Shown: positions 1,041 through 58,975 of the stretch, one piece after another
How the letters are laid out: every line of letters starts with the position of its first letter
Position numbering within the stretch: position 1 is the stretch's first letter
From: Nitrospirota bacterium
GTDB taxonomy: Bacteria; Nitrospirota; UBA9217
Assembly (NCBI GenBank): GCA_963663225.1
Contig: OY760142.1
Location: forward strand, 195,913 to 259,912
Length of the DNA stretch: 64,000 nucleotides
Direction: 5' to 3'
The notes under the pieces: model-generated
Seen by the model: the letters and a program-made list of their open reading frames with translations, nothing else
Told to the model about the DNA's origin: nothing
Databases searched by the model: none
Program-made: the position numbers and the translations under genes

Positions 1041-1053
1041 TTGTTTTCCGGAA

Positions 1054-1848: not shown

Positions 1849-1851
1849 GTT

Positions 1852-3003: not shown

Positions 3004-3648
3004 GTATCATCTCCGCACTTTTTGGCATTTGGCATAATGTCCTGTTTTTGCGCAGGGGCCAAAATCCGGTAGAAAGTCAGAAAAATTAGTTTCATATCAT
3101 AGAAAAATGAACGATGCAGTATGTATTCCTTTGCCATCCGCATTTTTTCCGGGAGAAGCACGGTCAGATAAAAATGTTCCGGGTTGTCCTGTCCTTTCAG
3201 AACGCTTTCTTCATCCCTGAATGTCAGAGATGAAATATCCGTAATGCCCGGGCGCACGCTCAGAATGGTTTCATATTCCTGTTTGTAATACTCGACGTAT
3301 TTCTTTACTTCCGGCCGTGGTCCCACTATGCTCATATCGCCTGTTACAACATTGATAAGCTGCGGCAGTTCATCAATTTTTGTTTTTCTCAATATCCGTC
3401 CAATCGCAGTAACACGTGCGTCGCCGCCCGCAGTAATCTGCAATCCGCTTTTCTGAGCATCACGCACCATGGTCCTGAATTTGTAAATAAAAAACGGTTT
3501 GAACCTCCGGCCCATCCGTTCCTGTTTGAAGAAAACAGGACCATCGCTGCCGAATCTGACTAGAAAAGCGACGACGATAAAGAGCGGCAATAGGACCAGA
3601 AGTCCGATCAAAGCACTGAAAAAATCAAAAAGGCGTTTTATCATCATA
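2991..3648 (-). CDS. polyprenyl-phosphate sugar-1-phosphate transferase (bacterial sugar transferase, short WbaP/PglC type); likely priming transferase
   Basis: N-terminal TM helix, then KIDELPQLINVVTGDMSIVGPRP and SVRPGITD motifs typical of bacterial sugar transferases. Start placed at the tandem ATG pair (MMIKRLFDFF). Confidence 0.75.
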
Positions 3649-3689
3649 GCATGTAAGCATAAATAGCGGTGCGGCGCGTGCACGCGTCG

Positions 3690-4913
3690 TTACTTCTTAT
3701 AGAGCGTGATAATTTCCGTGACAGTCCGAATCACCCGGTCGATATCACTCTCGGTCATTTTCGGATAGATTGGCAGGGAGATTATCCTCTTGTAGGTTTC
3801 GAATGCCACAGGATACTGTTCAGGTTTGTATCCGAAGGTATCCCGGTAATACGGATGGATATGCAACGGAATAAAGTGAACGGAGGTCCCGATTCCCCGC
3901 TGCCTCAGTTCCTCGATGAATCGGTTCCGGTCGATGTTTAGGGTCTCCAGATTCAGTTTGAGCACATACAGATGCCAGCCGTGCTTATATTGCTGGGCAC
4001 CACCCGTTAACTCCGAAGAATTGCTCCCGTCCATCTCCGGAAGTTCAACTGCCGAAAGCTTCGAAAATGCCTGGCTGTATCTTTCGGCGATATATTTTCT
4101 CCGCTTCCATAATTCATCGGCTTTTTTCAGCTGAACAATGCCCAGAGCAGCCGCTGTATCCGTGAGATTGTACTTATAACCCGGCGCTATAATTTCATAA
4201 TACCAGCTTCCTTCCGCCGTATATCTTTTCCAGGCATCCTTGCTGATTCCGTGCAGGCTCATAATCCTCATCCGATCGGCCCACTCGTCGTTGTTCGTTG
4301 TTATCATTCCGCCTTCACCGGTAGAAATATTTTTTGTTGCGTAAAAGCTAAAGCAGGTAATGTCGCCGATTGTTCCGATAATGTCCTTGCCATATACTGC
4401 AGGAAATGCATGCGCCGCATCCTCAATGACCATCAACCCGAATTTTCTGGCGATGGCCATGATCGCCTCCATGGCACAGGGACGACCGGCGTAATGAACG
4501 GGAATGATGGCTTTCGGCAGAGCAGAGCCGCGCTCAGCGCATGAAGACAGATACGCTTCTATGCCGGCGGGGGCAATGTTCATCGTCACCGGGTCAATAT
4601 CAACAAAAACCGGTACTGCTTTGAAGTAACGGATCACTTCGGCGGTGGCAGCAAACGTCATGGGGGTTGTAAGAACCGAATCGCCCTCCTTGATGCCGAT
4701 GGCCTCCAGCGCGAGGTGAAGGGCGGCTGTGCATGAGTTTACCGCGATAGCGTGCTTGCATCCGATGTATTTTGCGAAATCGCTTTCAAATTGTTTTGTA
4801 CGAGGACCGGTTGTTATCCACCCGCTTTTAAGGGTATCTACAACAGCCTGAATTTCCTCGTCTCCGATCAACGGAAGTGAGAAAGGAAGAAAATCATTTT
4901 TATTTGCACTCAT
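3690..4913 (-). CDS. DegT/DnrJ/EryC1/StrS-family PLP-dependent sugar aminotransferase
   Basis: Start at internal ATG (MSANKNDF) preceded by AAGGAG RBS. Family-typical N-terminal region LPLIGDEEIQAVVDTLKSGWITTGP and overall length about 407 aa. Confidence 0.85.
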   Translation of the reverse strand: MSANKNDFLPFSLPLIGDEEIQAVVDTLKSGWITTGPRTKQFESDFAKYIGCKHAIAVNSCTAALHLALEAIGIKEGDSVLTTPMTFAATAEVIRYFKAVPVFVDIDPVTMNIAPAGIEAYLSSCAERGSALPKAIIPVHYAGRPCAMEAIMAIARKFGLMVIEDAAHAFPAVYGKDIIGTIGDITCFSFYATKNISTGEGGMITTNNDEWADRMRIMSLHGISKDAWKRYTAEGSWYYEIIAPGYKYNLTDTAAALGIVQLKKADELWKRRKYIAERYSQAFSKLSAVELPEMDGSNSSELTGGAQQYKHGWHLYVLKLNLETLNIDRNRFIEELRQRGIGTSVHFIPLHIHPYYRDTFGYKPEQYPVAFETYKRIISLPIYPKMTESDIDRVIRTVTEIITLYKK

Positions 4914-4930
4914 CTGACGCTCCTTAACAG

Positions 4931-5710
4931 TTATCTGAATTTTCTGCCGCGGCTCAGGAAACGCTTCACATCTTCCCTGTCCGGCCAACCGTAGTAATTT
5001 CCCTTAGTCATATCGAGCGAACGGGTTGCAACATCGTTCCTGACAATTTTTTCTATGCCTTCAAGCACCATTTCCGCACCAATCTGTTTGGAATGCCGGA
5101 TAAAGGAATCCAGGGTGTCATGCTCACGGATTAGGAATTGCCTCTGGACCAGCACATCGCCCGCGTCGATTTTTTCGTTTACAAAAAACAGCGTGCTCCC
5201 CGCTTCCTTTTCGCCATTTGCAAGGACCCAAAACGACGGCATTACGCCCCGGTAATCAGGCAGCAGCGAACCGTGAAGGTTCAGGCAGCCTTTCGGTGCC
5301 AGCTGGATCAAGTCCTTTTTAAATATCTGCGGACATGATATGGATACGATAAGCTCCGTGTCCCAATCTTTTAAGAGTTGCCGGGTCTCCGGGCTGTTTA
5401 CATCAAGAGCCTGCACATAAGGAATACCGTACGCCGCCAGCACCGACTTAAGCGAATAATATTTTCCTGTTTTGCCGCCAAAACGATCCATCACCTTGTG
5501 TGACAGAACCTGAACGGAAAGCATCCCGGCTTCCCAGAAACCGAACGTTTTTGCATAGCGCAACGCAAGCCCCAGCGTTGTTGTTTTTTTGTAAAGCGGC
5601 GGAACAACGATAACTTTAACCTCATGCCGGCCTTTCAGATTTTCAAGAACAAACTGGTAGAATTCCGGCAAATACAGCGGTTCATCCGGCGTTAAAAAAA
5701 CAATGCGCAT
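4931..5710 (-). CDS. formyltransferase (Fmt/ArnA N-terminal-domain-like)
   Basis: 259 aa ORF with formyl-transferase core LNLHGSLLPDYRGVMPSFWVLANGEKEAGSTLFFVNEKIDAGDVL. Confidence 0.7.
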   Translation of the reverse strand: MRIVFLTPDEPLYLPEFYQFVLENLKGRHEVKVIVVPPLYKKTTTLGLALRYAKTFGFWEAGMLSVQVLSHKVMDRFGGKTGKYYSLKSVLAAYGIPYVQALDVNSPETRQLLKDWDTELIVSISCPQIFKKDLIQLAPKGCLNLHGSLLPDYRGVMPSFWVLANGEKEAGSTLFFVNEKIDAGDVLVQRQFLIREHDTLDSFIRHSKQIGAEMVLEGIEKIVRNDVATRSLDMTKGNYYGWPDREDVKRFLSRGRKFR

Positions 5711-5711
5711 G

Positions 5712-6572
5712 CTATATTCCTGCCTTTTCGCGGTGTTTTTGCAAAATGTCCGTTATTGTCCCGAACCTGCTCAACTGCAGAAGTCCGGCCACTTTTTCCT
5801 CAAATCCGGCACGTCCGATTCCCTGATGCAGTCTGCGAGTGACGGGAACATGCTTCATCATCTCTTGCCATTCCAGCGGGTTAAATTCATACGGATGGCA
5901 GTAAATAACAAAGGGCATATTTTCTTCTTCAATCCGTTTCAGACATCGCTTCAAAAACCAGGCCGGAAACAAACGAAAATATCCGCCTCCTCCTATCGGG
6001 ATACGAAGACCTGCGGGCCGCTTCAACTGGAGGACAGTGACCGGCAGTTCTTCCAGAGGTCCTTCCGGAGTCTCAATCCTGCTGTATCCCCGTGCAAAAC
6101 CTTCTATGCCGTAGCGAGGGGTTTTTAAAGGGAAAATGGACGAATCAAATTTAATACCGCACTCAACCATGACATCAAACGCCCAGAAGTTATCCTTGTC
6201 GATAGAAAAATCAGGAGCACGGAATCCGGTTACCGGTTTTCCGATAATGTCTTCAATCAGTTTGCCTGTCTCCGTTAATTCCTGTTTAAATGCTTTCGGC
6301 GTAAGACTGTAGACCGGTCGATGAGAATACCCGTGCGACTGGACTTCATGGCCGTTCGTACAAATCTCTTTGATCAACTCTGGATACTGTTTCGCAACCA
6401 TCCCCTGGACGAAAAATGTGCCCTTTACATTCAAACGTTCAAGAAAGCCAAGAACATGCCGTGTGTTCCGGACGCAAAGTTCACTGATGGGCGCGTCAAA
6501 GTTGTAAGAAGACTGGTACCAGTCTTCAACATCCACAGAAAAGGCGTGAATACTATTGTTTGCCATATTCAT
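5712..6572 (-). CDS. polysaccharide deacetylase-family protein (DVEDW-type, as in PEP-CTERM-locus deacetylases; possibly a deformylase)
   Basis: 286 aa ORF starting MNMANNSIHAFSVDVEDWYQS, with His-rich catalytic region (HEVQSHGYSHRP). Assignment to the PEP-CTERM-locus subfamily is from recalled motifs only. Confidence 0.7.
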   Translation of the reverse strand: MNMANNSIHAFSVDVEDWYQSSYNFDAPISELCVRNTRHVLGFLERLNVKGTFFVQGMVAKQYPELIKEICTNGHEVQSHGYSHRPVYSLTPKAFKQELTETGKLIEDIIGKPVTGFRAPDFSIDKDNFWAFDVMVECGIKFDSSIFPLKTPRYGIEGFARGYSRIETPEGPLEELPVTVLQLKRPAGLRIPIGGGGYFRLFPAWFLKRCLKRIEEENMPFVIYCHPYEFNPLEWQEMMKHVPVTRRLHQGIGRAGFEEKVAGLLQLSRFGTITDILQKHREKAGI

Positions 6573-41113: not shown

Positions 41114-41767
41114 TCAACACAATGATTCTACTTCCTGGGCTGCCACTCGTATGGAAACGCTTCTGCCGAGCAGTTCTACAGTAACCTGGAACAGATATTC
41201 GTTTTCTTTCCGGATCAGAATGCCTTCTGCATTTTTGAGCGGGCCGTTTTTAATCCGGATCCGGGTCCCCTGTTTCAAGTGCGGATAGACATCCAGCTCT
41301 TTGCCGCTCTCGACGAGAAGCCGTAAGGAATCTATCTCTTCGGGAGCAACCGGTGTCGGCTTGCCGGGTTCCAGCGAGATGAAAGTCACAACCCCTCGTG
41401 TCCTCAGCACGTCTAGGAACGCCTCAGGTCCGGGACTAATTTTCACGAAAAGGTATCCTGGAAACAGTGGATATTTGACGATCTTTTTTCTGTCTTTCCA
41501 CTGGCTGACCCGCTTTGCAGCAGGCAGAAATGCTTCCAGATTTTTTTCAGTCAGTTCATCCAGAACAACGAATTCATGCCGCGATTTTACATGAACGGCA
41601 TACCAGCATACCGTCTGCTCTGCCGGCGATTGTCGACTAAAATGAGATTCCGAAAACACTATAGACCGTGCCAGTTCACATTGATTCATGAGTTCCACGT
41701 TTCCTTTTATTTCCGTATTCCCGATTTTCCAGTCCATGCAGGCGACAGGAAAGGACTTACCGATCAC
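41114..41767 (-). CDS. NusG-paralog transcription antiterminator (UpxY/LoaP/RfaH-like)
   Basis: NGN-domain motif CWYAVHVKSRHEFVV...YPLFPGYLFVK and C-terminal KOW-like GTRIRIKNGPLKNAEGIL. True start uncertain; candidate Met codons at 41767, 41737 and 41689. Confidence 0.7.
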   Translation of the reverse strand: MIGKSFPVACMDWKIGNTEIKGNVELMNQCELARSIVFSESHFSRQSPAEQTVCWYAVHVKSRHEFVVLDELTEKNLEAFLPAAKRVSQWKDRKKIVKYPLFPGYLFVKISPGPEAFLDVLRTRGVVTFISLEPGKPTPVAPEEIDSLRLLVESGKELDVYPHLKQGTRIRIKNGPLKNAEGILIRKENEYLFQVTVELLGRSVSIRVAAQEVESLC

Positions 41768-45633: not shown

Positions 45634-45669
45634 AAAAAAAGGCGTTGCAGGATTAGTCCTGCAACGCCT
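45634..45669 (-). terminator. intrinsic terminator between convergent glmS and the iron-sulfur flavoprotein operon (strongest in the minus direction)
   Basis: Perfect 13-bp stem AGGCGTTGCAGGA / TCCTGCAACGCCT with 4-nt loop. The A7 run on the plus strand gives a U-run after the hairpin for the minus-strand transcript. Confidence 0.7.
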
Positions 45670-45697: not shown

Positions 45698-48600
45698 TCA
45701 ATAATCATATTTTGGTTTTTTGCAGAAAAGCCCCTTGTCTCTTGCTGCATTGATAAGGGAAAATGACTCGACAGCATTGTCGGCAATCCCTTTATAGTGC
45801 GGCATCTTTTCAGCAATCAATCCTCTGACATGATCCATGCTATACGATTTCCCCGTTGCCTCCTGCAGTATCATGTTCAGGACCTCGAAGTTTGATACGC
45901 CCTGAAGCGGATCGAAAGCCTTTTTGAATTTCACGACTTTTCCATCAAAGGAAACAATCGATCCTTCCGATTCGATATTCGGAGCATACGGAAGAACAAC
46001 CTCGGCGCTGGCGGTTATATCATTCTCGAAAGACGAGAGCGCAGCAACAAAGTCGACCCCTTTCGGAGAAAGATCAGAGATACTTATATTTTCATTCAGC
46101 GAAAGTATCGCCTTGATTTTCCCTTTCTGCAAGGATTCCTTAATCGCTTTGAGTTTGTCAGCCGAGGAGAACCCGGTCGAGCCGTCGAACACGATATCCC
46201 GGTACCCCTGGCTGTTGCTGTTTTTGTGGATAACGGCGATGCCGTTATTCGCCTTGTTCATGCGGCCCGTGCTGAGCAACAGGTTAACGGCTGCCTTGAT
46301 ATCCTTGAGGTTTGCGCCATCAACCGTATCATTATAAAGAACAATGGCGTTCTTTGCGCCGTCAAGCAGGGCTGCCGCGACAGTCTCAACTTTATCCAGG
46401 TTTTTGGGATACGTTTCCTTGAGGACTCCCGACTTGAATTTTTCAAATCCCTCAATGGCAGCTGCCGCTTTGGCGTCGAATGCCTTGTTGCTGATCACAC
46501 TCTTGAGAATGGCATTGATTATCTGCCCTTCCTCACCGGTCTTGCAATCAATATGGACGGACACGTATTTCTCAAGTTCAGAATTGAGCGGTCCTATCTG
46601 GACAAGCTGTGCGCCCTTTGCAACTGCCCTTTTTACCTGGAAACCGAACACAGGGCTGTTCAGCGTCAGTCCGGAGCCGATATTGATAATCACGTTTGCC
46701 TTTGCCACATCTTCGCGCGTGGCGGAAGAAATATTCATACCCGTCATCTCGCTGATATCGGGTATCTCCGCACGCACGATATCTTCTGCAGAGGCTATAT
46801 TGGAAGAACCGTAATGCTTTGCTATCGACGAAAGAAGGAATACTTCCTCATTCGTCGCGGACGGAGAAACAAGGAACAGCAGGGAGTCGCCGCCCTGTTT
46901 GCTTTTGATATCATTGAGCCGCGCCGTTAATTTAGCGATCGCCGTCCGGATGGGAACGGCCCCCTTCCCATTCTCATAGCTTTCAGCAATTCTGCCGTCC
47001 TGCTTCAAATAGGTGCTCTCGAATCTGCCTTTCTTGCACAGTTCTCCTTCAACATATTTTTCATAGGGTTTCGCGGTCAGATAGAAAATATCCCGGTCGT
47101 ATGCGTTGATGTCGATTTCGCAAGCAACGCTGCAGTCGGAACAAACCGACCGTTTCGCCGTGGTTTTAAACGGCGCCTGTCTCTTGAAGGGGTAGTTGAA
47201 CTCGATTGCCCCTGTGGGACAGACTTCGATGCAGTTGCCGCAGGAAATGCATGAGGTTTCCGCAAGCGGTCTATCCATTGACGGCTTCACCACGGTTGAG
47301 TAGCCGCGGTTTATAAACCCGAGGGCATGAATGCCGATCAGGTCTCCGCAATACCGTACGCACCTTCCACAGAGCACGCATTTGTTCGGATCGAGTGAAA
47401 TATAGGGGTGCTGATCGTCAACCTTGGATTTTTTAAATTTGCCAGTATATGCCTTCTGCACCGCACCGACTGCGGTGGAGTAATCCTTGAGGTCGCAGTC
47501 ATAAATGGTGACGCAACCGCAGGCAAGGCACCGGTTTGCTTCGTGGGAAACGATTTCAGGAGTGACCCCGAGATCAACTTCATCGAACGTCTTGATTCTT
47601 TCCGCGGGATCCAGCTTTTTGCTATGGCTGCGTTCGACCTGTTCGATATGCGCAAAGGACGCCTTGTCGAGTTTTTCAAGCGCCGCCTTGTCGCTGACGA
47701 ATTCATCGTGAATCGGAACGATTTTGCCAGTCGAAATATATTTGTCGATGACCGTCGCGGCCTTTCTTCCCATGCCGATGGCATCAATGGCCGCCATGGG
47801 CCCGCTCGCAACGTCGCCGCCGGCAAAAATCCCCGAAATATTCGTAGCTGTCGACTTCGGATCGAAATCAATTGTTTTCCATTTGGTTGTTTTTATTTCA
47901 CCAAACGTCTTGTTTGCCAGCGAGGAGAGATCGGCTTCCTGGCCAATCGCGGAAACGATCATATCGCACTTGAATACAAACTCGGAATTTTCCTTCTGGA
48001 TCGGCTTTCTTCTGCCGCTCGCATCCGGCTCTCCCAGATACATCTCAAAGCACTCGAGACCGATCAGTTTTCCATTCTCGGCAACCACTCTCTTGGGAGC
48101 CGTAAGCATCTTAAACTCGATGCCCTCTTCGACCGAATCATGGATCTCTTCCTTATCGGCAGGCATTTCATCCAGCGTACGGCGGTACAAGAGCGCCACT
48201 TTGTCTGCTCCGCACCGGACTGCCGTTCTCGCCACGTCGATCGCCGTGTTGCCGCCGCCGACAACCGCCACGGTTCCGCTCAAGCGCGGCAGAACAGCCG
48301 CCTTTTTGACATCTTCAAGGAATTTGATGCCGGTCTGAACAAAGGGAGAATTTTCTCCATCAATGCCCATGGGTTTTCCGACCCAGGAACCGATGGCAAG
48401 ATAAACGGCGCTGTATCCCTTTGCCTTTAATTCATCAAGAGTGATGTCTTTTCCGAGCTTCACTCCTGTCTCGACATTTATGCCGTGGGAAATAATGAAG
48501 TTGACTTCCTTATCGAGCACTTTTGCAGGCAAGCGATATTCGGGGATTCCGTAGCGCACCATACCGCCGAGCTTCGGCTGAGCTTCGAAAATGGTGACTT

Positions 48601-49249
48601 CATATCCCTTCTTGGCAAGAAAATACGCGCAGGTCAGACCCGAAGGGCCACCGCCGACAACCGCGACTTTTTTGCCGTTCTTCGGAGCAAGGACGGGTTT
48701 CTCAAGCCTGTCATATTCAAGGTCGGCCACATAGCGTTTTACGAAGTTCAAAGCGGCCGGAGTATCCGTATAGTTTCTTCTGCAATTCCCCTCGCAATAC
48801 TTCACGCAAACCCTGCCGCACATGAGAGGCATCGGGTTGGTCTCCCTGATCAGTTCGAGAGCCTCTTTATATTTGCCTGCGCCTGCAAGAGCAAGATATC
48901 CCTGGATATCCACTGAAGCCGGGCATCTTGTGTTGCACGGCCCCCTGCAGTCGGCATAGTGGGTTGAAAGAATAAGCTCAAGAGCCGATTTTCTCGACGC
49001 CACCGCTGCGGGGCTGTCCGTCTCTATCTCCATACCGTCTGCAGCAGGCACGGCACAGGAGACGAGTATTTTTTTCGATTTCATTTCCTCGACTGAACAT
49101 ACAAGGCAGGAACGATGGGGCTCAAGCCGCGGCTCATAACACATGGCCGGGATATCGAAACCATTGTCCCTTGCCACCTGCAGTATGGTCTTGCCAGGTT
49201 CGGTAACTATGCTTTTTCCGTTGATTTTTATTGTAATGGTATTTGCCAT
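45698..49249 (-). CDS. multidomain iron-sulfur flavoprotein: NuoG/HydA-like N-terminus fused to GltD/NfnB-like FAD/NAD(P)H domain, with a NuoG-like C-terminal region (Stn/Nfn-type large subunit candidate)
   Basis: 1183 aa ORF; N-terminal 2Fe-2S ferredoxin cysteines (MCYEPRLEPHRSCLVCSVEE); dinucleotide motifs VAVVGGGPSGLTCAYFL and VAVVGGGNTAIDVA; several CxxCxxCxxxCP ferredoxin motifs. I could not find [FeFe]-hydrogenase H-cluster motifs. Confidence 0.7.
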   Translation of the reverse strand: MANTITIKINGKSIVTEPGKTILQVARDNGFDIPAMCYEPRLEPHRSCLVCSVEEMKSKKILVSCAVPAADGMEIETDSPAAVASRKSALELILSTHYADCRGPCNTRCPASVDIQGYLALAGAGKYKEALELIRETNPMPLMCGRVCVKYCEGNCRRNYTDTPAALNFVKRYVADLEYDRLEKPVLAPKNGKKVAVVGGGPSGLTCAYFLAKKGYEVTIFEAQPKLGGMVRYGIPEYRLPAKVLDKEVNFIISHGINVETGVKLGKDITLDELKAKGYSAVYLAIGSWVGKPMGIDGENSPFVQTGIKFLEDVKKAAVLPRLSGTVAVVGGGNTAIDVARTAVRCGADKVALLYRRTLDEMPADKEEIHDSVEEGIEFKMLTAPKRVVAENGKLIGLECFEMYLGEPDASGRRKPIQKENSEFVFKCDMIVSAIGQEADLSSLANKTFGEIKTTKWKTIDFDPKSTATNISGIFAGGDVASGPMAAIDAIGMGRKAATVIDKYISTGKIVPIHDEFVSDKAALEKLDKASFAHIEQVERSHSKKLDPAERIKTFDEVDLGVTPEIVSHEANRCLACGCVTIYDCDLKDYSTAVGAVQKAYTGKFKKSKVDDQHPYISLDPNKCVLCGRCVRYCGDLIGIHALGFINRGYSTVVKPSMDRPLAETSCISCGNCIEVCPTGAIEFNYPFKRQAPFKTTAKRSVCSDCSVACEIDINAYDRDIFYLTAKPYEKYVEGELCKKGRFESTYLKQDGRIAESYENGKGAVPIRTAIAKLTARLNDIKSKQGGDSLLFLVSPSATNEEVFLLSSIAKHYGSSNIASAEDIVRAEIPDISEMTGMNISSATREDVAKANVIINIGSGLTLNSPVFGFQVKRAVAKGAQLVQIGPLNSELEKYVSVHIDCKTGEEGQIINAILKSVISNKAFDAKAAAAIEGFEKFKSGVLKETYPKNLDKVETVAAALLDGAKNAIVLYNDTVDGANLKDIKAAVNLLLSTGRMNKANNGIAVIHKNSNSQGYRDIVFDGSTGFSSADKLKAIKESLQKGKIKAILSLNENISISDLSPKGVDFVAALSSFENDITASAEVVLPYAPNIESEGSIVSFDGKVVKFKKAFDPLQGVSNFEVLNMILQEATGKSYSMDHVRGLIAEKMPHYKGIADNAVESFSLINAARDKGLFCKKPKYDY

Positions 49250-49260
49250 GGTTTTCAGCC

Positions 49261-51030
49261 CTAATCCTTATAGATAGCGTTGAAATTGCACACCGTAAAG
49301 CATTTGCCGCACTTAACGCACTGTTCCTGGTTGACGGTATGAGGTTTCTTCCGTTCTCCCGTGATCGCCTTTGTGGGGCAATCGCGCGCGCAGAGAGTAC
49401 ACCCTGTGCACTTCTCCGGCTTAATGACGAACTTCACCAGTGCCGCGCAGGAATGCGCCGGACAAACATGGTCTCTGATATGCGCAAGATATTCATCCTT
49501 GAAGTATTTGAGCGTCGTGAGCACGGGGTTCGGCGCGGTGACTCCCAGGCCGCAGGAGGAAGACTTCCCGATATAATCAGCAAGTTCCTGAAGCTTCGCA
49601 ATGTCCTCTTCCTTGCCCTTCCCGGCAACAATGCGTTCGAGAATCTCCAGCATGCGGAGCGTTCCGATCCTGCAGGACGTGCATTTGCCGCAAGATTCGT
49701 TCTGGGTAAACTCAAGGAAGAACCGGGCCAGCTCAACCATGCAGGTATCTTCGTCCACGACGATCATGCCGCCGGAACCCATAATGGCGCCGAGCTTGGT
49801 TATTTCCTCGTAATCGATTTTCGTATTCGCGAGAGATGCCGGGATGCAGCCTCCGGAAGGGCCGCCCATCTGAACGCCCTTGAACTTTTTGCCGTTCCTG
49901 ATCCCGCCGCACACTTCATTCACAATTTCGTTAATGGTGATGCCCATCGGAACTTCAACAAGTCCGGCTTTGCTTGCCTTGCCGGCTATCGCAAACACCT
50001 TGGTGCCTTTGCTTTTCTCCGTCCCATACGCTGCATATTTTGCCGCACCGTTCAGAACAATCCACGGCACGTTGGCAAACGTCTCCACGTTGTTGATATT
50101 GGTGGGTTTGCCCCACAAACCTTTTGCCGCAGGATAGGGAGGCCGAACTTTCGGCGTGCCCCGTTTTCCCTCAATGGATGACATCAGGGCAGTCTCTTCA
50201 CCGCAGACAAAAGCACCGGCCCCTTCTTTCACCTTCAGCTTGAAGGAGAACTTGCTGCCGAAAATATTGCTGCCGAGCATGCCTTTCTTTTCGAGGATCG
50301 CAATGGACCGCTGAAGACGCCGCACTGCCATGGGATACTCTGCTCTGCAGTAGATATATCCCTCGGAAGCGCCGATGGCATATCCGCAGATCATCATGCC
50401 TTCGAGAACAGAGTGGGGATCGCCCTCCAACACGCTTCTGTCCATAAAAGCCCCGGGGTCGCCCTCGTCAGCATTGCAAATAACGTATTTTTTATCGTTC
50501 TTGGACTGGCTTGCGAATTTCCATTTCATTCCGGTGGAGAATCCTCCGCCGCCCCTTCCCCGCAGTCCCGACGCGATCATCATTTCAATAACCTGATCCG
50601 GTGTCATTTCCGTCAGGACCTTTTTAATTGCCTTGTATCCGTCCTTGCCAAAATACTCATCCAGGGAATCAGGATCAATGGTACCGCAATTGCGGAGAAC
50701 AATTTTCACCTGTTTCTTCAGGTAGTCATACTCCTGGCCTTCTTTCTTGTCCCGTATGATCACCCATTCCTCGACCGGTTTCTGGTCGGTAACGTGGCTA
50801 TCAAATATCTTTTTTGCCTTTTCCTCGGTGACGTCACCGTAAAGAAATGTCTGAGCCCCCGTACTTACTTCGACCAAAGGCTCCCGATAGCACATGCCGA
50901 CGCAGCCGGTTGCAGAGACCGCAACTGATGATTTAGGAGCATTCCCCGACAAATTCGTTAAAGCATCAAAAACCTTTTGCGCTCCTGCCGAGACGCCGCA
51001 GGTAGCCATTCCAACAGTAATATTTATCAC
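49261..51030 (-). CDS. NuoF/HndC/HydB-like NADH-binding FMN iron-sulfur subunit
   Basis: 589 aa ORF; N-terminal thioredoxin-like 2Fe-2S region; GLRGRGGGGFSTGMKW (NADH/FMN site); ESCGKCTSCR (4Fe-4S); C-terminal two ferredoxin motifs (CTGCTLCARDCP, CVKCGKCFTVC). Confidence 0.85.
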   Translation of the reverse strand: MINITVGMATCGVSAGAQKVFDALTNLSGNAPKSSVAVSATGCVGMCYREPLVEVSTGAQTFLYGDVTEEKAKKIFDSHVTDQKPVEEWVIIRDKKEGQEYDYLKKQVKIVLRNCGTIDPDSLDEYFGKDGYKAIKKVLTEMTPDQVIEMMIASGLRGRGGGGFSTGMKWKFASQSKNDKKYVICNADEGDPGAFMDRSVLEGDPHSVLEGMMICGYAIGASEGYIYCRAEYPMAVRRLQRSIAILEKKGMLGSNIFGSKFSFKLKVKEGAGAFVCGEETALMSSIEGKRGTPKVRPPYPAAKGLWGKPTNINNVETFANVPWIVLNGAAKYAAYGTEKSKGTKVFAIAGKASKAGLVEVPMGITINEIVNEVCGGIRNGKKFKGVQMGGPSGGCIPASLANTKIDYEEITKLGAIMGSGGMIVVDEDTCMVELARFFLEFTQNESCGKCTSCRIGTLRMLEILERIVAGKGKEEDIAKLQELADYIGKSSSCGLGVTAPNPVLTTLKYFKDEYLAHIRDHVCPAHSCAALVKFVIKPEKCTGCTLCARDCPTKAITGERKKPHTVNQEQCVKCGKCFTVCNFNAIYKD

Positions 51031-51043
51031 GGTTAACCTCGCC

Positions 51044-51601
51044 TCAATTCCGCGCTTTGCGCTGATATTCCTTCAACAGCTTCCGTACACTCTGGGCTGT
51101 CAGCTTTCCATGCACATCCTCGTTGATGAAAATAACCGGCCCGATACTGCAGCAACCGAGACATGCGACCGTCTCAACGGTAAACAAACCGTCATTTGAC
51201 GTATCAGAGGAGTCGTCCAGCTTGAGTTCTTCTTTAATAACATTAAGAAGCATGGTCGAATCGTTAACATGACAGGCCGTTCCATCACAAACCTTGAGAA
51301 GATTTTTTCCCGGCGGCTTCAGCCGGAACTGCTTATAAAATGTCACGACGCTGTAAATGTCGCTTTCAGCAGCGCCAGTCAACTGGCTGATTTCATGGAT
51401 AGATTCTTCAGGAACGTATCCGTTCTCCACCTGCACCTTCTGCAGAAGTGGAATAACGTCACTTTTGCTTGCCCCTTTTGCAGCAACTTCAGGGGGGAAA
51501 AACTTAAACGTCGCGTTCTTGAGCACCCTCTGCCTCCTTAAACTCTGCGATTTCGTACCCGAACGATCACGATAGTGCATTTCGTGACGTTGCAAACTCA
51601 T
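51044..51601 (-). CDS. NuoE/HndA/HydC-like thioredoxin-fold [2Fe-2S] subunit
   Basis: 185 aa ORF; cluster-binding cysteines in CDGTACHV and CLGCCSIGPV. Start may be later than the ORF-track start. Confidence 0.8.
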   Translation of the reverse strand: MSLQRHEMHYRDRSGTKSQSLRRQRVLKNATFKFFPPEVAAKGASKSDVIPLLQKVQVENGYVPEESIHEISQLTGAAESDIYSVVTFYKQFRLKPPGKNLLKVCDGTACHVNDSTMLLNVIKEELKLDDSSDTSNDGLFTVETVACLGCCSIGPVIFINEDVHGKLTAQSVRKLLKEYQRKARN

Positions 51602-51776
51602 TATTTTAACCTTTTTATACCCTTTTTACAAGAAAACTTTTCGGATAAGAGCAAACGGAAAATGCACCGATAAGAATTATATAATGAAAAACCCTGCTGC
51701 AGTGCTGTCTTCCTGGTAAAAACACTTATGCAATTTCCGCTGTTGCTTACAACAAGCAAAATGCAGAAAACAATTC

Positions 51777-51823
51777 AAAAAAAAGGAGCGCCCCCCGGCT
51801 AAATTCCGCAGGGGTAGCGCTCC
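51777..51823 (-). terminator. putative intrinsic terminator downstream of the malic enzyme gene
   Basis: Imperfect GC-rich hairpin (GGAGCGCCCC ... GGGGTAGCGCTCC). An A8 run on the plus strand gives a U-run after the hairpin on the minus strand, about 100 nt past the stop at 51922. Confidence 0.5.
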
Positions 51824-51921
51824 CGGTCTATAGTCGCTACTCACAACAGTGCATGTTTGTTAACCAGCTGTAAAGAACATATCCACGCAATCGCGAATAG
51901 ATCGGATGTGGCGCAGGTTCC

Positions 51922-53241
51922 TTAGAGCTGATGTTTGTAGGATTTCACGAACGCACTCATACGATCGCGAGCGTCGAATACGCGTTTGCGCAGGTCTTTT
52001 GCATACTGATCCAAGTCAAGTTTAACCGTGGCAACGCCTTCATCCATGGCTGCCTTGGCAACCGCAACCGGCTCGAGGTCGATCAGACGGGTATCAAGCG
52101 CCTTCGGGATGATGTAGTCCAGACCATAGGTCAGCGACTTCACATTATACGCATCACAAACTTCCTGCGGTACCGGCTTTTTGGCCAGGTCAGCGATAGC
52201 TTGCGCTGCAGCTTTCTTCATATTTTCGGTGATTGCAGTTGCGCCGCAGTCCAGAGCTCCGCGGAAGATATAGGGGAACCCGGAAACGTTGTTCACCTGG
52301 TTCGGGAAGTCAGAACGGCCCGTTCCCATGATCAGGTCCGGACGAGCTGCCTTTGCATCGGGATACGGAATTTCCGGATCAGGGTTCGCCATGGCGAACA
52401 TGATCGGATTTTTGGCCATGCTCTTAACCATTGCAGGAGATACAAGGTTCGCCTGCGAAAGGCCGAGGAACATGTCTGCGCCCTTGAATGCTTCTTCAAG
52501 CGATGAGAAAGCCTTTTTCTGGGCAAACAGCTTTTTGTACTCGTTGAGGTCGGTACGACCCGCATGAATATGGCCTTTGGTGTCGAACAGGGAGATGTTT
52601 TCCTGAGGAACACCGAGCAAAACATAGAATTTGCAGCAGGCAATACCGGCAGCACCGGCGCCCGAGCAGACCACTCTCATGTCAGAGGCTTTCTTGCCTG
52701 AAATATCGATGGCATTGATCAAGCCTGCACCGGAGATGATCGCCGTACCATGCTGGTCATCATGGAATACCGGTATTTTCATGATCTTTTTCAGTTTTTC
52801 TTCAATATAGAAGCAATCGGGTGCGCCGATGTCTTCGAGATTGATGCCGCCAAAAGTCGGCTCTAATGCCTTCACAATTTCAATGATTTTATCCGGATCC
52901 TTGACATCAAGATTGATATCATAGGAATCAATGTCCGAGAAAATCTTGAACAAGATTCCCTTGCCTTCCATGACCGGCTTTGCAGCTGCTGGGCCGAGGT
53001 TTCCAAGTCCCAGGATGGCGGTACCGTTGGTGACAATTGCCACCAGGTTGCCCTTACCTGTGTACTTGTAAACATCTGCGGGATTTGCCGCAATTGCGCG
53101 GCAAGCGTCAGCAACACCTGGCGAGTAGGCCGTTGCCAGATCCTTCTGGGTAAAGTAGGGCTTTGTCGGAATGACTGTGCATTTCCCCGGAGGAAACACA
53201 TTATGATACTTCAATGCTTCTTCTTTCGTTACCAGTGCCAT
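51922..53241 (-). CDS. malic enzyme (NAD(P)-dependent malate dehydrogenase, decarboxylating; short type without PTA domain)
   Basis: 439 aa ORF; AAGGAGG RBS; malic-enzyme N-terminus [13 protein letters not shown] and dinucleotide-binding [12 protein letters not shown]. Confidence 0.9.
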
Positions 53242-53364: not shown

Positions 53365-53380
53365 AGCAAGGAACATGCCA
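53365..53380 (-). promoter_or_regulatory. sigma-54 (-24/-12) promoter upstream of the malic enzyme gene
   Basis: Minus-strand reading TGGCATG-TTCC-TTGCT versus consensus TGGCACG-N4-TTGCW (11 of 12 positions, correct GG-N10-GC spacing), about 124 nt upstream of the ATG and adjacent to a sigma-54 activator gene. Confidence 0.5.
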
Positions 53381-53673: not shown

Positions 53674-55098
53674 TTATTCTTCGCTCGAAGTTTCCTGCTG
53701 CTGTTTAAGGCGCTTGCTCAGCGCTGGCTGCGATATGCCCAAAAATCGGCTTGCCACAGACTGATTCCCTCTCGCACGCTTCATGGCTTCCGCAATGAGA
53801 AGCCCCACGGTCTGCTGAATGGAAGGCAGAGTTTCCACACTTTCGAAGATATTCGCGGAATCAGCATGAAAACGCGAAGGGGTCCGGTCATGTGAAGCAC
53901 TTATCTTTTTAAATTGTTTGGTTGAAACAGTGCCCGAGGCGGACTGAGCAACGGCGTCGAACACCATCGAACGCAGTTCCCGGATATTGCCCGGGAAATT
54001 ATACTGTTCAAGAAGCGGGACCAGATCAAAGGCATAATTCAGCTTGTCCTTTCCGAGAGAACGGGCCGCTTCCTCCAGAAAATAATCGAGCAGCAGCGGG
54101 ATGTCTTCCTTTCGATCGCGAAGCGGAGGCAGGTGTATATGGTGCGTGTGCAAACGGAAAAAAAGGTCCTTTCGCAATTCTCCCCGCGCCTGTTTTTCAG
54201 TAAGGTTCTGGTTCGTGGAAGCGATAACGCGCGCATTCAACCGTTTCGGCCTGTCGCTGCCTAAGGGAAAGTAATCTCCCTCCTGAAGAAGACGCAGAAG
54301 CTTCACCTGCGATGCATTGTTCAGGTCGCCTATTTCGTCCAAAAAAAGAGTCCCCAGGGCCGCCTGTTCCACCATGCCGCTTCTCGGCTGGTCCGCGCCG
54401 GTAAAGGCGCCTTTTACGTGTCCAAACAAGGTATCGGTAAACATGGCATCATCAAGTCCTCCCACATTCACCGATACCAGCGAACCCTTGCAGCCGCTTA
54501 AGGTATGGACTGCATTGACGATGAGCCCTTTTCCCACGCCGCTTTCACCCGTAACCAGCAGCGGCTGGCTGCTTTTGGCTACCGCTTCCACGTATTGGAA
54601 AATCGTTTTCATCGTTTTATTCAGCGTAATGATGCCTTCAAACGCGTGGGGATCCCGGAGTGAATCCGACAGAAAACTCCTGGTCATCTCGCGGTTCTCC
54701 GAACGCATTTCTATGATTTTTATCGCATGCTGGATTGCGGTAATAATCCGGCATTCTTCGGCAGTCTTGACCATATAATCGAAAGCGCCGTGTTTCATGC
54801 AGGTGACCGCGGTCTCGAGCTGGCTTATGCCGCTGCAGACAATCACTATTATCTCGGGGAACTGTTCGTTTATCAGTTTCAGAAGTTCTTCTCCCGAGAG
54901 GTTGGGCATCGTGAGATCCAGCAGCACAATGCCGATCTCCTGCTGGGCCAGTATCTCTAAAACATCACGGCTGTCCTGGCAGGACATCACATTGGTGATG
55001 CCTGCATGCCTCTCAAGGGACATGCGCATGGATCGGATCCATGCCTGCTCATCATCCACGATCAGGATGCGAAATGACGGATACCCTGCTGCACTCAT
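53674..55098 (-). CDS. sigma-54-dependent response regulator (NtrC family: receiver + AAA+ sigma-54 activation domain + HTH)
   Basis: Start placed at ATG forming an ATGA overlap with the kinase stop; receiver ILIVDDE...LLDLTMP; Walker A GESGVGKG; GAFTGA motif; C-terminal HTH (RARGNQSVASRFLGISQPALSKRLK). Confidence 0.85.
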   Translation of the reverse strand: MSAAGYPSFRILIVDDEQAWIRSMRMSLERHAGITNVMSCQDSRDVLEILAQQEIGIVLLDLTMPNLSGEELLKLINEQFPEIIVIVCSGISQLETAVTCMKHGAFDYMVKTAEECRIITAIQHAIKIIEMRSENREMTRSFLSDSLRDPHAFEGIITLNKTMKTIFQYVEAVAKSSQPLLVTGESGVGKGLIVNAVHTLSGCKGSLVSVNVGGLDDAMFTDTLFGHVKGAFTGADQPRSGMVEQAALGTLFLDEIGDLNNASQVKLLRLLQEGDYFPLGSDRPKRLNARVIASTNQNLTEKQARGELRKDLFFRLHTHHIHLPPLRDRKEDIPLLLDYFLEEAARSLGKDKLNYAFDLVPLLEQYNFPGNIRELRSMVFDAVAQSASGTVSTKQFKKISASHDRTPSRFHADSANIFESVETLPSIQQTVGLLIAEAMKRARGNQSVASRFLGISQPALSKRLKQQQETSSEE

Positions 55099-56906
55099 GC
55101 CTGAACCTCCCATTCTGCCACAGGCAGTTTGATAATTACGGTTGCTCCCTCGCCGGGCTTGGAATTAAAACTGAGCGTTCCCCCATGCTCCTTCACAATT
55201 CCCGCGGAGATCGCAAGCCCGAGACCCGTTCCGCCGCTGTCCCTCTTGGTGGTAAAAAAGGGATCGGTCACGCGGTTCAGATGTTCCGGCGGAATGCCGA
55301 TTCCATCGTCGTGCACCCTGATGATAATCGTCCCGACTTCACGCTCATATGAGGTCATGACAAATATCCCTTTGTCGACAAACGGCAAGCCGGGAAACGA
55401 GCTCATAATATCTACCGAAGGCTGTGGCGTGCGCTCCGGCTTCTGCCGGTTGGCGCTCTCAACGGCCTGCGCCGCATTCAACACAAGGTTTACAATCACC
55501 TGTTCGAGCCGGTGCGGATTGCCCTTGATCAAAGGAAGCGGTTCCGTGCAATAAACAGCGCAGTGGATGGCCGAGCTTTTCAACGAGTGTTCCAGCAGCC
55601 GGACGGAAGTCCGCACCACATTGTTCACGTCGAACAGCTCCTTGGAATTGGAATCGTTTTTCCGCGAAAAGTGCTTGAGATCGTCGACAATGCGCTTGAT
55701 GCGCTTTACCGCAACCTGCATCTCGTCAAGAAGCTGGGGAAGTTCCTTGCGCATCCGTGAATACGGCAGACCACCCATTAAAAATTCCCCGTGTTCACGG
55801 TAATAAGCATCAAGAATCGGGTCGGCATCTTTGATGACCTCGCTGACCAGCGGCAAATTAAAAAGAAGCAGACCGTTCGGATTGTTGATTTCATGGGCCA
55901 CGCTCGAGACAAGAACACCCAGGGCAGCCATCTTATCGGCCTGGATCAACCGCTGGTGCTGAAGCCTCAGCTCTTCATCCATGCGTTTGCGTTCTTCCAC
56001 CTCGCGGTTCAGGGCAGCGGTCCTGGCGGCAACCCGCATCTTCAGCAGTCTGGACCAAATAATGGACGCAAGAAGGCCGAAAATAAGCGCGGAAACAATG
56101 TACATGTTGTATTTTTTCAGCCATTTCCAGGAAGCATACTCTGTATCCACATTTCCCAGCCATTTTTCCTGCAGTTCCTGATACCGGCCCGTCTCTTTGA
56201 GAAATGCCAGCCCTTCATTGAATTTTTCCAATGTAGCCAGGTTCCCTTTTCTGAAGGCAAAGCAGTACTTGCTGGTATCGATATTCTTGGCAACCAGTTC
56301 TACGTTTGTGATCTTTAAATCGGTAATCAGATATGTTGCCTGAAGCGTTTCCAGCACGGCATAGTCATGTTTAGCCGAGGCAAGCATCTTCACTGCCTCC
56401 GCAATGGACGAAACAGTGACTATCTGAATTTGGCTCCATGCCGCCCGGGAGTAATCGTGTTTTCCATCCAGGCTCACAAGAACGACTTTCTTTCCGCGGA
56501 GATCATCAAGGGATGAAACCGGAGATGCGTCTGTTCTGGCGAAGATGGAATGAGAAATTGCGGAATGCGGCGAAGAAAGGTCCAGGATATGCGCCCGTTC
56601 TTCCGAAAAGGGAAGGCCTTCGATAACATCAATACGGCCGGTTTCCACATCCCTGAATATCGTGGACCATGATTTTTCCAGCTTAAACGTGACTTCAACG
56701 TCCATGGTCTCGGCTATGGCTTTTGTCAACTCCACAATGAAACCGGCGGGCTTGCCATCTCTGTCAATGAACTCATACGGTGGATGGGCGCTGTTGCCGC
56801 CTACAACGATCATGTGTTTGGAGTTATCGGTGTTCTCCGCGGCCAGAGTCTGAGCATGGAGAGCTGGTAATAACAGCAGCAGACAGATGAAGGCTCTCAC
56901 CATCAT
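55095..56906 (-). CDS. sensor histidine kinase with N-terminal periplasmic solute-binding (SBP type 3-like) domain
   Basis: 603 aa ORF; signal peptide; periplasmic domain about 230 aa; one TM helix; HisKA H-box (LVSSVAHEINNP); HATPase motifs (HDDGIGIP, GGTGLGLAI). Confidence 0.8.
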   Translation of the reverse strand: MMVRAFICLLLLLPALHAQTLAAENTDNSKHMIVVGGNSAHPPYEFIDRDGKPAGFIVELTKAIAETMDVEVTFKLEKSWSTIFRDVETGRIDVIEGLPFSEERAHILDLSSPHSAISHSIFARTDASPVSSLDDLRGKKVVLVSLDGKHDYSRAAWSQIQIVTVSSIAEAVKMLASAKHDYAVLETLQATYLITDLKITNVELVAKNIDTSKYCFAFRKGNLATLEKFNEGLAFLKETGRYQELQEKWLGNVDTEYASWKWLKKYNMYIVSALIFGLLASIIWSRLLKMRVAARTAALNREVEERKRMDEELRLQHQRLIQADKMAALGVLVSSVAHEINNPNGLLLFNLPLVSEVIKDADPILDAYYREHGEFLMGGLPYSRMRKELPQLLDEMQVAVKRIKRIVDDLKHFSRKNDSNSKELFDVNNVVRTSVRLLEHSLKSSAIHCAVYCTEPLPLIKGNPHRLEQVIVNLVLNAAQAVESANRQKPERTPQPSVDIMSSFPGLPFVDKGIFVMTSYEREVGTIIIRVHDDGIGIPPEHLNRVTDPFFTTKRDSGGTGLGLAISAGIVKEHGGTLSFNSKPGEGATVIIKLPVAEWEVQA

Positions 56907-57394: not shown

Positions 57395-58072
57395 ATGGCG
57401 AAAAACGATTTATACATATCCCCTTTTGAAGGCAAAACACCCGAAGAACGTTTTGTAGCCTATATTGATATTCTTGGCTTTGGTAAAGAAGTAAACGATA
57501 ACTTAGAAGCTGCCATAGACGTTTATGAAGATTTGATTGGTCATTGTCATTTATTAGGTCGCCTAGTAAATCTGTCAATCTATTCCGATTCAATTATTCT
57601 GCAATCTGCAAAATTGATTGACGTCGCATATGTAGCGACAATGGTTCAATTTATTGCTCTTACACGAAATTATCTGGTACGAGGAGGCATCGCGGTCGGG
57701 AAGCATCTTGAATCGAGGCAAAATGGAAATTTATTCGTGGTCAGCAAAGCATTAGTAAAAGCTGTAAAACAGGAGAAGCTAAATCAAACCCAAGAGACAC
57801 CGTGTATTACCCTTCATCATGAAATAAATCCAGTTCCGTCGGTCGTATTAAATGATCCTGCACGCATTGTTGTTGAATACAAGGGACAAAACATTGTTAA
57901 TCCTTTCAATCCCCACATGGAATCAAGCCAAAGAGATGGAATACATTCTCAACTAATTGAACTACGTGACAGATGTCCCGAGAAGGACCAACCGAAATAC
58001 ACTTGGTATATAGAATTGATGGATTTCATTCTAAGAACATATGGGGAAAGTGGACGACAGCGGCCAAATTAG
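57395..58072 (+). CDS. hypothetical protein with minimal nucleotide-cyclase-like palm domain (class III cyclase / GGDEF / Cas10-palm superfamily-like)
   Basis: 225 aa ORF in a low-GC stretch. FVAYIDILGFGK resembles the cyclase metal-binding motif FADIVGFT, with a second Asp about 40 residues later (SIYSDSIIL) and RGGIAVGKH resembling RIGIHTG. Assignment rests on motif resemblance only. Confidence 0.45.
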   Translation: MAKNDLYISPFEGKTPEERFVAYIDILGFGKEVNDNLEAAIDVYEDLIGHCHLLGRLVNLSIYSDSIILQSAKLIDVAYVATMVQFIALTRNYLVRGGIAVGKHLESRQNGNLFVVSKALVKAVKQEKLNQTQETPCITLHHEINPVPSVVLNDPARIVVEYKGQNIVNPFNPHMESSQRDGIHSQLIELRDRCPEKDQPKYTWYIELMDFILRTYGESGRQRPN

Positions 58073-58156: not shown

Positions 58157-58975
58157 ATGACTATACCATACATAAAACAATATGAAACCCAATTACATTC
58201 GCGACATTATATTCGAAATGCGACTGCTGCAAATTATTGGTATGATTTTTCTGCAAATCGTGTATCCACTTATGTTAATAATTACCATGACGATTTCTGC
58301 ATGGTTATCAATGGCTCAGAAACTGAGAACGACGCCTATGTCTTGCCATATAAAGTCTTTAAAGGTTTTTTTACTGAAGATTACCTTGATCACCGAAACC
58401 GTTGGAATGGTACCATCAAAGACAATATCATCAAACTCACATTGACAGCGAATAACAAGCCAAACAAATATCTATCCGTTGGTGCTTTTTATAATGCCTT
58501 TTCATTTCTCGTCTCAAACCTGCCCGATGAGAATGAAATTCATGTAGTAACGACAGATAGCTTAGAAATCAATCTTTCAAATCTGCAGAAACTGATTCAG
58601 GAGTTTAACGAGCATTACTCAAGTATTGCTCCGGAAAAGCGGATTACCGTATCGGAACGAATCGCGAGACCCAATGCAATCACAGATTATATTAAGAAAA
58701 TTCAAAAATTTACTTGCCAGATATGCAAGCTTCCCGGCTTTCAACAAAAAAACGGTTCCAAATATATCGAAGCCCATCACATCATAGAACTGCATGACTT
58801 AATTCCAGGATCATACTGCTCTGACAACATCATTACAGCCTGCCCAACTTGTCATAGGAAGCTACATTACGCATCTGTATTGTACCAGACTCAAAACGAG
58901 CAAATAGTATCTGTCATTATTAATGGCCAAGCTTATTCTTTTCAAAGAAATGTTATTTCTGAAAAAGTAAAGTAG
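58157..58975 (+). CDS. HNH-endonuclease-domain protein with N-terminal domain of unknown function
   Basis: 272 aa ORF; C-terminal HNH/zinc-finger motif CQICKLPGF...YIEAHHIIELHDL...CPTCHRKLHY; the N-terminal 190 aa have no motif I can assign. Confidence 0.6.
   Translation: MTIPYIKQYETQLHSRHYIRNATAANYWYDFSANRVSTYVNNYHDDFCMVINGSETENDAYVLPYKVFKGFFTEDYLDHRNRWNGTIKDNIIKLTLTANNKPNKYLSVGAFYNAFSFLVSNLPDENEIHVVTTDSLEINLSNLQKLIQEFNEHYSSIAPEKRITVSERIARPNAITDYIKKIQKFTCQICKLPGFQQKNGSKYIEAHHIIELHDLIPGSYCSDNIITACPTCHRKLHYASVLYQTQNEQIVSVIINGQAYSFQRNVISEKVK

Follow-up and report, generated by a model that had tools for sequence, protein, structure and literature searches.

A Nitrospirota operon very probably encoding a StnABC/NfnABC-type electron-bifurcating transhydrogenase

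We analyzed a 64,000 nt stretch of DNA from a Nitrospirota bacterium (contig OY760142.1, positions 195,913 to 259,912; in the following called the window), in which three tightly packed open reading frames (ORFs) lie on the minus strand. Our ORF check found them at the coordinates given by an earlier reader of the sequence (in the following called the original prediction), and the Pfam and NCBIfam domains agree with its description of a three-gene NuoE/NuoF-type operon whose large subunit fuses a NuoG-type with a GltD-type module. The genes, in the order of transcription, are:

51044 to 51601, minus strand: stnA / nfnC (BfuC), NuoE/HydC-like subunit, 185 amino acids as the longest ORF
49261 to 51030, minus strand: stnB / nfnB (BfuB), NuoF/HydB-like subunit for flavin mononucleotide (FMN) and NAD(H), 589 amino acids, GTG start
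45698 to 49249, minus strand: stnC / nfnA (BfuA), large fusion subunit, 1183 amino acids

The genes are separated by 13 nt and then 11 nt. Their order, a NuoE-like gene followed by a NuoF-like gene and the large GltD-NuoG fusion, all adjacent and co-oriented, is the layout of the Stn/NfnABC operons. In the Protein Data Bank (PDB), the best matches of all three subunits come from the same three complexes, NfnABC of Caldicellulosiruptor saccharolyticus (Csac; 9bov), StnABC of Sporomusa ovata (Sov; 8oh5), and NfnABC of Thermococcus sibiricus (Tsi; 9n5u). Together with the conserved diagnostic motifs described below, these matches bear out the resemblance to Stn/Nfn-type transhydrogenases that had been proposed. 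We placed the operon by score ranking and motif conservation, with the family signatures taken from the literature (PMC7483475, PMC10482914, PMC11829005, PMC12018979), and on this basis it very probably encodes a heterotrimeric StnABC / NfnABC complex (Nfn-Bfu, Type 1 Bfu).

StnA belongs to the 2Fe-2S_thioredx (NuoE) family (PF01257, E 1.5e-44) and contains the cysteines of a thioredoxin-like [2Fe-2S] cluster (Cys105, 110, 147, and 151, numbered on the 185-amino-acid product). Its PDB ranking is led by 9n5u_C (Tsi NfnC, E 5.6e-41) and 9bov_C (Csac NfnC, 2.3e-38), followed by 7t2r_C and 8oh5_A. For StnB, Pfam and NCBIfam assigned a Complex1_51K and an NADH_4Fe-4S domain, a C-terminal 2x[4Fe-4S] domain, and a weak N-terminal thioredoxin-like domain. 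The chains 8oh5_B (E 2.6e-250), 9bov_B (8.5e-249), and 9n5u_B (4.4e-244) ranked highest, with every hydrogenase HydB chain lower, and, counted from the alignments, StnB shares 60% identity with Sov StnB and likewise with Csac NfnB. The FMN loop GLRGRGGGGF and the CNADEGDPGAFMDR loop are both present in StnB, as are the ligands of the B1 [4Fe-4S] cluster (Cys447, 450, 453, and 493). The Zn ligands of Tsi (C437, H524, C529, and C534) map to Cys430, His517, Cys523, and Cys528, and the C-terminal ferredoxin-binding domain holds the motifs of the two [4Fe-4S] clusters B3 and B4 (Cys541-551 and 571-581). The B5 site in the thioredoxin-like domain at the N terminus consists of Cys11, 43, and 47, a three-cysteine pattern common to Sov, Csac, and Tsi; it may be occupied by Zn or by a [2Fe-2S] cluster, the sequence being compatible with either. 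Hence the BfuBC bifurcating core is complete, with the FMN loop, B1, the Zn/B2 linker, B3/B4, the thioredoxin-like domain, and the [2Fe-2S] motif of BfuC.

In StnC, Pfam matched Fer2_4 (residues 3-79), Fer4_20 (101-179), Pyr_redox_2 (193-494), Fer4_Nqo3 (615-682), Molybdop_Fe4S4 (698-745), and Molybdopterin (771-1114). The protein can be divided into the following parts:

49013 to 49243, minus strand: residues 3-79, N-terminal [2Fe-2S] ferredoxin domain (PF13510; Cys37, 48, 51, 65)
47729 to 48961, minus strand: residues 97-507, GltD/NfnL-like domain (PF14691 and PF07992; alignments to Sov, Csac, and Tsi)
47195 to 47530, minus strand: residues 574-685, CxxCxCxxxxxC cluster and NuoG/HydA-type 2x[4Fe-4S] (PF22117 and alignments)
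45701 to 47158, minus strand: residues 698-1183, inactive formate-dehydrogenase-like domain (PF04879 and PF00384 only)

Two dinucleotide-binding motifs had been noted in the 1183-amino-acid subunit, and both are found as Rossmann motifs of the Pyr_redox_2 domain, GGGPSG (199-204) for flavin adenine dinucleotide (FAD) and GGGNTA (331-336) for NADPH. The second is of the NADP(H) type (GxGxxA, G331 to A336) and is followed by Y355-R-R357, a pattern as in Sov, Csac, and Tsi; GxGxxA and YRR together predict NADP(H) specificity of this domain. The motifs HxxxCxxxCxxxCP and CxxCxCxxxxxC are signatures of the GltD-into-NuoG fusion (PMC7483475), and StnC carries them as H97xxxC101xxxC105xxxC109P and C574xxC577xC579xxxxxC585. 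Further cysteines of the GltD domain are arranged as C144xxxC148xxxC152xxxC156. In the alignment, K171 corresponds to Sov K170, the 'strictly conserved' lysine ligand of the FAD-proximal [4Fe-4S] cluster, and R239 to Sov R239, which lies near the FAD (PMC10482914). The NuoG-like region had also been recognized correctly, being represented by Fer4_Nqo3, the CxxCxCxxxxxC motif, and two ferredoxin-type [4Fe-4S] clusters (Cys624-634 and 667-677). With the Molybdop_Fe4S4 cluster (Cys703, 706, 710, and 738), StnC has seven Fe-S motifs, six for [4Fe-4S] and one for [2Fe-2S], as in the long bacterial forms.

The C-terminal region was inspected for Mo/W-pterin ligands, and none was found. The 'VCH' motif of FdsA aligns to 'IVR' in StnC, replacing the Mo-ligand cysteine and the catalytic histidine by Val-Arg, which excludes a formate dehydrogenase active site. 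Furthermore, the Molydop_binding domain (PF01568) was not found in the C-terminal part even at E<=10, the pterin domain falls short of full length (about 485 versus roughly 700 amino acids), and the match to the formate dehydrogenase alpha model TIGR01591 is partial, with 146.7 bits versus a cutoff of 666. The C-terminal half scores 243 and 192 bits against NfnA and StnC, and 142 and 133 bits against genuine FdsA, which ranks NfnA and StnC above any true FdhA. The absence of hydrogenase H-cluster motifs, likewise part of the original prediction, holds for the matches reported: the H-cluster domain (PF02906) is neither among the best 25 of 31 Pfam families nor among the NCBIfam matches, and the similarity to the [FeFe]-hydrogenase subunit HydA is confined to the Fe-S N-terminal modules (NF040763, residues 566-684, 172 bits versus a cutoff of 765). 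An intact formate dehydrogenase or hydrogenase site, named beforehand as grounds for refutation, was thus not found, with Val-Arg at the ligand positions and neither PF01568 nor an H-cluster domain among these matches. In Sov, the formate-dehydrogenase-like domain has no catalytic activity, and the tetramer requires it for assembly (PMC10482914). By analogy, the domain of StnC is probably a cofactor-less remnant with a structural role in assembly or oligomerization. It is present in the long form that mediates tetramerization in Sov and Csac, and the complex encoded here may form a tetramer of heterotrimers, as the bacterial long forms do.

StnC is colinear over its full length with 9bov_A (residues 5-1146 versus 4-1117, E 1.8e-227) and with 8oh5_C (E 3.9e-201). 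Its identity to the solved enzymes in the printed alignments is 44-45% in the 2Fe-2S/GltD half and 31% in the NuoG/formate-dehydrogenase-like half. At E<=1e-50, we found >7800 database homologs, and the ligand and motif residues listed above for StnC are invariant in 55 aligned homologs of 40-75% identity. The order of the triplet is kept in four relatives including Holophaga foetida, with products of 157-168, then 582-589, then 1179-1236 amino acids. These relatives include members of other phyla and the flanks are otherwise unrelated among them; the triplet recurs amid unrelated genes, which is the behavior of a self-contained module. Kremp et al. (PMC7483475) counted the H. foetida StnC homolog HolfoDRAFT_2931 as Stn, and this is probably the H. 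foetida protein found here. A scan of contigs with patterns from close relatives yielded two near-identical loci in metagenome-assembled genomes (MAGs) of Nitrospiraceae, both ending inside the gene, and otherwise GltD-only matches in unrelated taxa. With a MAG labeled 'uncultured Nitrospiraceae bacterium', the window shares 99% identity.

Among the solved complexes, Csac NfnABC (9bov/9bp5; Li et al. 2025, PMC11829005) provides the best PDB match of StnC. Csac NfnA is a long form as well (1178 versus 1183 amino acids) and has seven Fe-S motifs, the lysine ligand, and an inactive formate-dehydrogenase-like domain; Csac NfnB shares B1, B3, B4, the Zn site, and the three-cysteine B5 pattern with StnB. 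Differences lie in the cysteine of Csac at the Sov C114 site (Ile115 here), the lack of Cys144, and the host, a thermophilic Firmicute instead of a member of Nitrospirota. Sov StnABC (8oh5/8oh9; Kremp et al. 2020, Kumar et al. 2023) has the same gene order stnA-stnB-stnC and provides the best match of StnB. Its K170, R239, HxxxCxxxCxxxCP, CxxCxCxxxxxC, and GxGxxA features are all kept here, whereas C114 is replaced by Ile115 and the extra Cys144 of the window protein is missing from Sov. The S. ovata stn operon adjoins the Wood-Ljungdahl gene metVF (PMC7483475). In contrast, the operon of the window is flanked by an NADP-malic-enzyme gene and by glmS, and there are no acetogenesis genes in the 64 kb.

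Tsi NfnABC (9n5u/9n5v; Schut et al. 2022, Xiao et al. 2025), which provides the best match of the small subunit, resembles the complex of the window in its Zn ligands and in a non-cysteine residue (Val) at the Sov C114 site, but its NfnA is a short form of 963 amino acids, lacking one cluster and much of the formate-dehydrogenase-like domain, and the enzyme is a single heterotrimer. The two-subunit NfnAB / NfnSL enzymes (T. maritima 4ylf, P. furiosus 5jca) catalyze the same overall reaction, and their NfnB/NfnL is homologous to StnC residues ~100-507 (E 3.5e-91 and 1.2e-81). They differ in having an FNR-like small subunit as partner and no NuoE/F, in using the FAD as the bifurcating site, and in a glutamate instead of a lysine as cluster ligand. 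Adjacent to the stn operon there is no NfnA/S-type gene, Lys171 replaces the glutamate, and the partners are NuoE/F-like. With the HydABC / NiFe-HydABCSL enzymes (7t2r, 7q4v, 8a6t, 7p5h), the operon shares a homologous BfuBC core (StnB E 1e-227 to 1e-192) and the logic of FMN-centered bifurcation, but their large subunit has no GltD-type NADPH domain and instead bears a hydrogenase active site or docks one.

We considered it quite improbable that the operon encodes a non-bifurcating NADPH oxidoreductase, whether for sulfur or polysulfide (Nso-type), for Fe(III) (SfrAB-type), or for an uncoupled transfer from NADPH to ferredoxin or NAD+. In favor of such a function, the T. litoralis homolog initially entered the literature as an NADPH-dependent sulfur oxidoreductase (cited in PMC10482914 and PMC7483475), the GltD domain is similar to SfrB and SudA, and isolated S. 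ovata StnC oxidizes NADPH with artificial acceptors (both PMC7483475). The full BfuBC core with its thioredoxin-like domain, Zn linker, B3/B4, and NuoE-like [2Fe-2S] argues against it. The subunits of SfrAB are separate, and SfrAB is not known to have NuoE/F partners, both of which count against an SfrAB-type enzyme. Moreover, the Nso-type enzyme of T. sibiricus has been proven to be a genuine Nfn-Bfu (PMC9304861).

Many homologs bear the JGI name 'formate dehydrogenase major subunit', which is an automated annotation, and the Molybdopterin and Molybdop_Fe4S4 matches as well as the partial match to TIGR01591 could be taken to point to an NAD(P)+-linked formate dehydrogenase. This is nevertheless extremely improbable, with a TIGR01591 score far under its cutoff, Val-Arg in place of Cys/Sec-His, no PF01568, and a truncated pterin domain; in addition, S. 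ovata Stn does not oxidize formate (PMC7483475) and its corresponding domain is inactive (PMC10482914). There is also very little to be said for an input/output module of a hydrogenase encoded elsewhere, in which a HydBC-like core and the large subunit would dock a separate [FeFe]-hydrogenase. Such a role would fit a relative of 75% identity, whose stn-like operon is divergent from hydG, a lyase gene, hydF, and hydE, but hyd genes are absent from the 64-kb window, the adjacency is not kept in the three other relatives, StnC has no H-cluster domain, and StnB scores Nfn-type above hydrogenase-type B subunits. We rejected the formate dehydrogenase and hydrogenase identities on active-site and domain grounds.

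Several observations weigh against the assignment to StnABC / NfnABC. The identity of StnC to the characterized enzymes is ~38% overall and ~31% in the C-terminal half, and this protein and its clade are assigned by homology. Ile occupies position 115, at which Sov and Csac carry the cysteine (C114) that modulates the FAD-proximal cluster (PMC10482914), and the extra Cys144 is invariant in the clade and absent from all three solved enzymes. Because an archaeal homolog was originally described as NADPH:sulfur oxidoreductase (Nso; PMC10482914, PMC7483475), side activities or other acceptors may occur in what is likely a sulfur-metabolizing lineage.

The residues at positions 115 and 144 could also mark a subgroup within the StnABC / NfnABC family. 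Cys144 (CGRVC; codon 48818-48820) is invariant in the 55 homologs of 40-75% identity and does not occur in Sov, Csac, or Tsi. T. maritima NfnB carries its equivalent ('CGRVC'), which makes Cys144 look like an ancestral GltD-type residue that has been retained. At the Sov C114 position, the clade of the window has Ile or Val. The Sov variant C114A keeps 50% activity (PMC10482914), and the enzyme of Tsi is active with Val at the corresponding site. We regard it as rather unlikely, but worth stating, that Val/Ile at the C114 site and the invariant Cys144 (CxxxCxxxCxxxC) define a distinct, mostly non-Firmicute Stn/NfnABC subclade, which would comprise Nitrospirota, Holophaga, Myxococcota, 'Deltaproteobacteria', Riflebacteria, and Anaerolineae. 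Since Cys144 is missing from all solved enzymes, cluster coordination or potentials may differ in this clade. If the subclade is real, the ligands and potentials of the GltD-domain clusters could deviate from all three solved enzymes, and the direction or kinetics of the transhydrogenase might be shifted in non-acetogenic respiratory anaerobes.

The ends of the stn operon were delineated from its gene starts and the following signals:

45634 to 45668, minus strand: intrinsic terminator of the stn operon, 11-bp G+C-rich stem, 6-nt loop, T7 run
51603 to 51631, minus strand: sigma-70-like promoter candidate TTGTAA-17-TAAAAT upstream of stnA, consensus match only
51777 to 51824, minus strand: terminator-like hairpin followed by T8, 3′ of the malic-enzyme gene, 5′ boundary of the stn unit

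The ATG at 51601, with which the longest stnA ORF begins, has a poor ribosome-binding site. A GTG at 51526 would give a product of 160 amino acids and is part of the sequence AAGGAGG-N6-GTG (51539 to 51524, minus strand). The relative of 75% identity has GGAGG-N6-GTG at the equivalent position and an stnA product of 162 amino acids, within the 157-168 amino acids found among the relatives. Because of the consensus Shine-Dalgarno sequence and the length fitting the homologs, GTG 51526 is favored and is probably the true start, which makes the longest ORF 75 nt or 25 codons too long. Accordingly, the lower end of the operon coordinates 45698-51601 in the original prediction was upheld, while the upper end probably lies 75 nt beyond the true start, and the unit therefore probably spans 45698-51526 plus promoter and terminator. 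The stn terminator begins 30 nt past the stnC stop codon (fold -31.4 kcal/mol, z = -7.0), and the hairpin at 51777 to 51824 folds with -32.4 kcal/mol (z = -3.25). The stn operon is a discrete unit between two terminators. Transcription from the promoter candidate, if used, would begin downstream of ATG 51601; the total count of sigma-70-like matches in the region is not above shuffle expectation, which weakens the support for this candidate. We also searched for a sigma-54 promoter of the stn operon and found none, the only good match in the window preceding the malic-enzyme gene.

Directly upstream of the stn operon lies this gene for an NADP-dependent malic enzyme (51922-53241, minus strand; 439 amino acids, malic domain only, NF009501-like). 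The sigma-54 match, TGGCATGTTCCTTGCT at 53380 to 53365 (minus strand) with one mismatch, is located ~125 nt ahead of its start. Next to it follow genes for a sigma-54 response regulator (53674-55113, minus strand) and a histidine kinase that contains a periplasmic SBP_bac_3 domain (55095-56906, minus strand). Co-transcription of the malic-enzyme gene with the stn operon was rejected in view of the terminator-like hairpin between them. Because of this terminator and an adjacency that is not kept in the relatives, a functional link between malic enzyme and Stn through the NADPH pool is only possible. On the other side, glmS lies downstream of the stn operon and is convergent with it. In the relative of 75% identity (L081, positions 253-5825), the genes divergent from the stn-like operon are hydE, hydF, a Lyase_1 gene (aspartase-like), and hydG, the hyd genes encoding [FeFe]-hydrogenase maturases, and a sigma-54-like element, TGGCATATTTATTGC (6256-6270), is found ~70 nt upstream of the stnA start. 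The window has neither the maturase adjacency nor the stnA-upstream element.

The first ~42 kb of the window (1-42700, minus strand) are taken up by a long, co-oriented locus for polysaccharide biosynthesis and export, which resembles exopolysaccharide clusters of the PEP-CTERM/exosortase type. It encodes several glycosyltransferases (GT1, GT2, and GT4), a DegT aminotransferase, polysaccharide deacetylases, Wzy- and Wzx-like proteins, Wza (Poly_export), a Wzz/GNVR chain-length protein, and a ParA-like ATPase. Further genes of this locus encode a glutamine-dependent asparagine synthase, three AMP-binding ligases, an Orn/DAP decarboxylase, an AAA_22 ATPase, and a NusG-like paralog (41114-41767). 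Near the other end of the window, a 225-amino-acid ORF without Pfam match (57395-58072) is followed by a 272-amino-acid ORF with an HNH endonuclease domain (58157-58975, plus strand). No tRNA or Rfam elements were found in the window.

The gene organization, domain order, ligand and motif positions, and homology ranking were read directly from the window, and we infer from the homologous solved enzymes what the activity, cofactor occupancy, oligomeric state, and physiological direction would be. In the Stn/NfnABC family, the FAD of the GltD domain is not the bifurcating flavin, and bifurcation takes place at an FMN-centered site of the NuoF/NuoE-like pair. By this analogy, NADPH would pass a hydride to the non-bifurcating FAD of the GltD-like domain of StnC. 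Single electrons would then travel from the Lys171-ligated [4Fe-4S] cluster via the second cluster of the GltD domain, the CxxCxC...C cluster, and a NuoG-type [4Fe-4S] cluster to the N-terminal [2Fe-2S] cluster, and from there reach B1 and the FMN of the NuoF-like subunit. There, the 'flavobicluster' of FMN, B1, and [2Fe-2S], formed with the NuoE-like subunit, would split two electron pairs. NAD+ would be reduced at the FMN, and the NuoE-like domain, which is mobile, would hand the low-potential electrons to the pair of C-terminal [4Fe-4S] clusters, from which they would pass to ferredoxin. The reaction would be reversible, NADH + Fd_red + 2 NADP+ -> NAD+ + Fd_ox + 2 NADPH, and the enzyme would therefore link the NADH, NADPH, and ferredoxin pools of the anaerobic Nitrospirota host; NADPH formation may be the direction taken in vivo.

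The original prediction called such fusions sparsely characterized. This is outdated because purified enzymes of the family from three organisms have been assayed and three cryo-electron microscopy structures are available (2020-2025; PMC7483475, PMC9304861, PMC10482914, PMC11829005, PMC12018979). With biochemistry and structures published, the locus raises no new mechanistic question. Judged by its sequence, the operon is a Nitrospirota member of the already well-characterized StnABC/NfnABC (Nfn-Bfu) family. Its value lies in annotation: homologs are routinely mislabeled and appear in databases as 'formate dehydrogenase major subunit', 'FAD-dependent oxidoreductase', or 'glutamate synthase small chain', and recognizing the triplet assigns a ferredoxin-coupled NADH/NADPH transhydrogenase to the host. 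This assignment helps metabolic reconstruction with respect to redox balance and NADPH supply.

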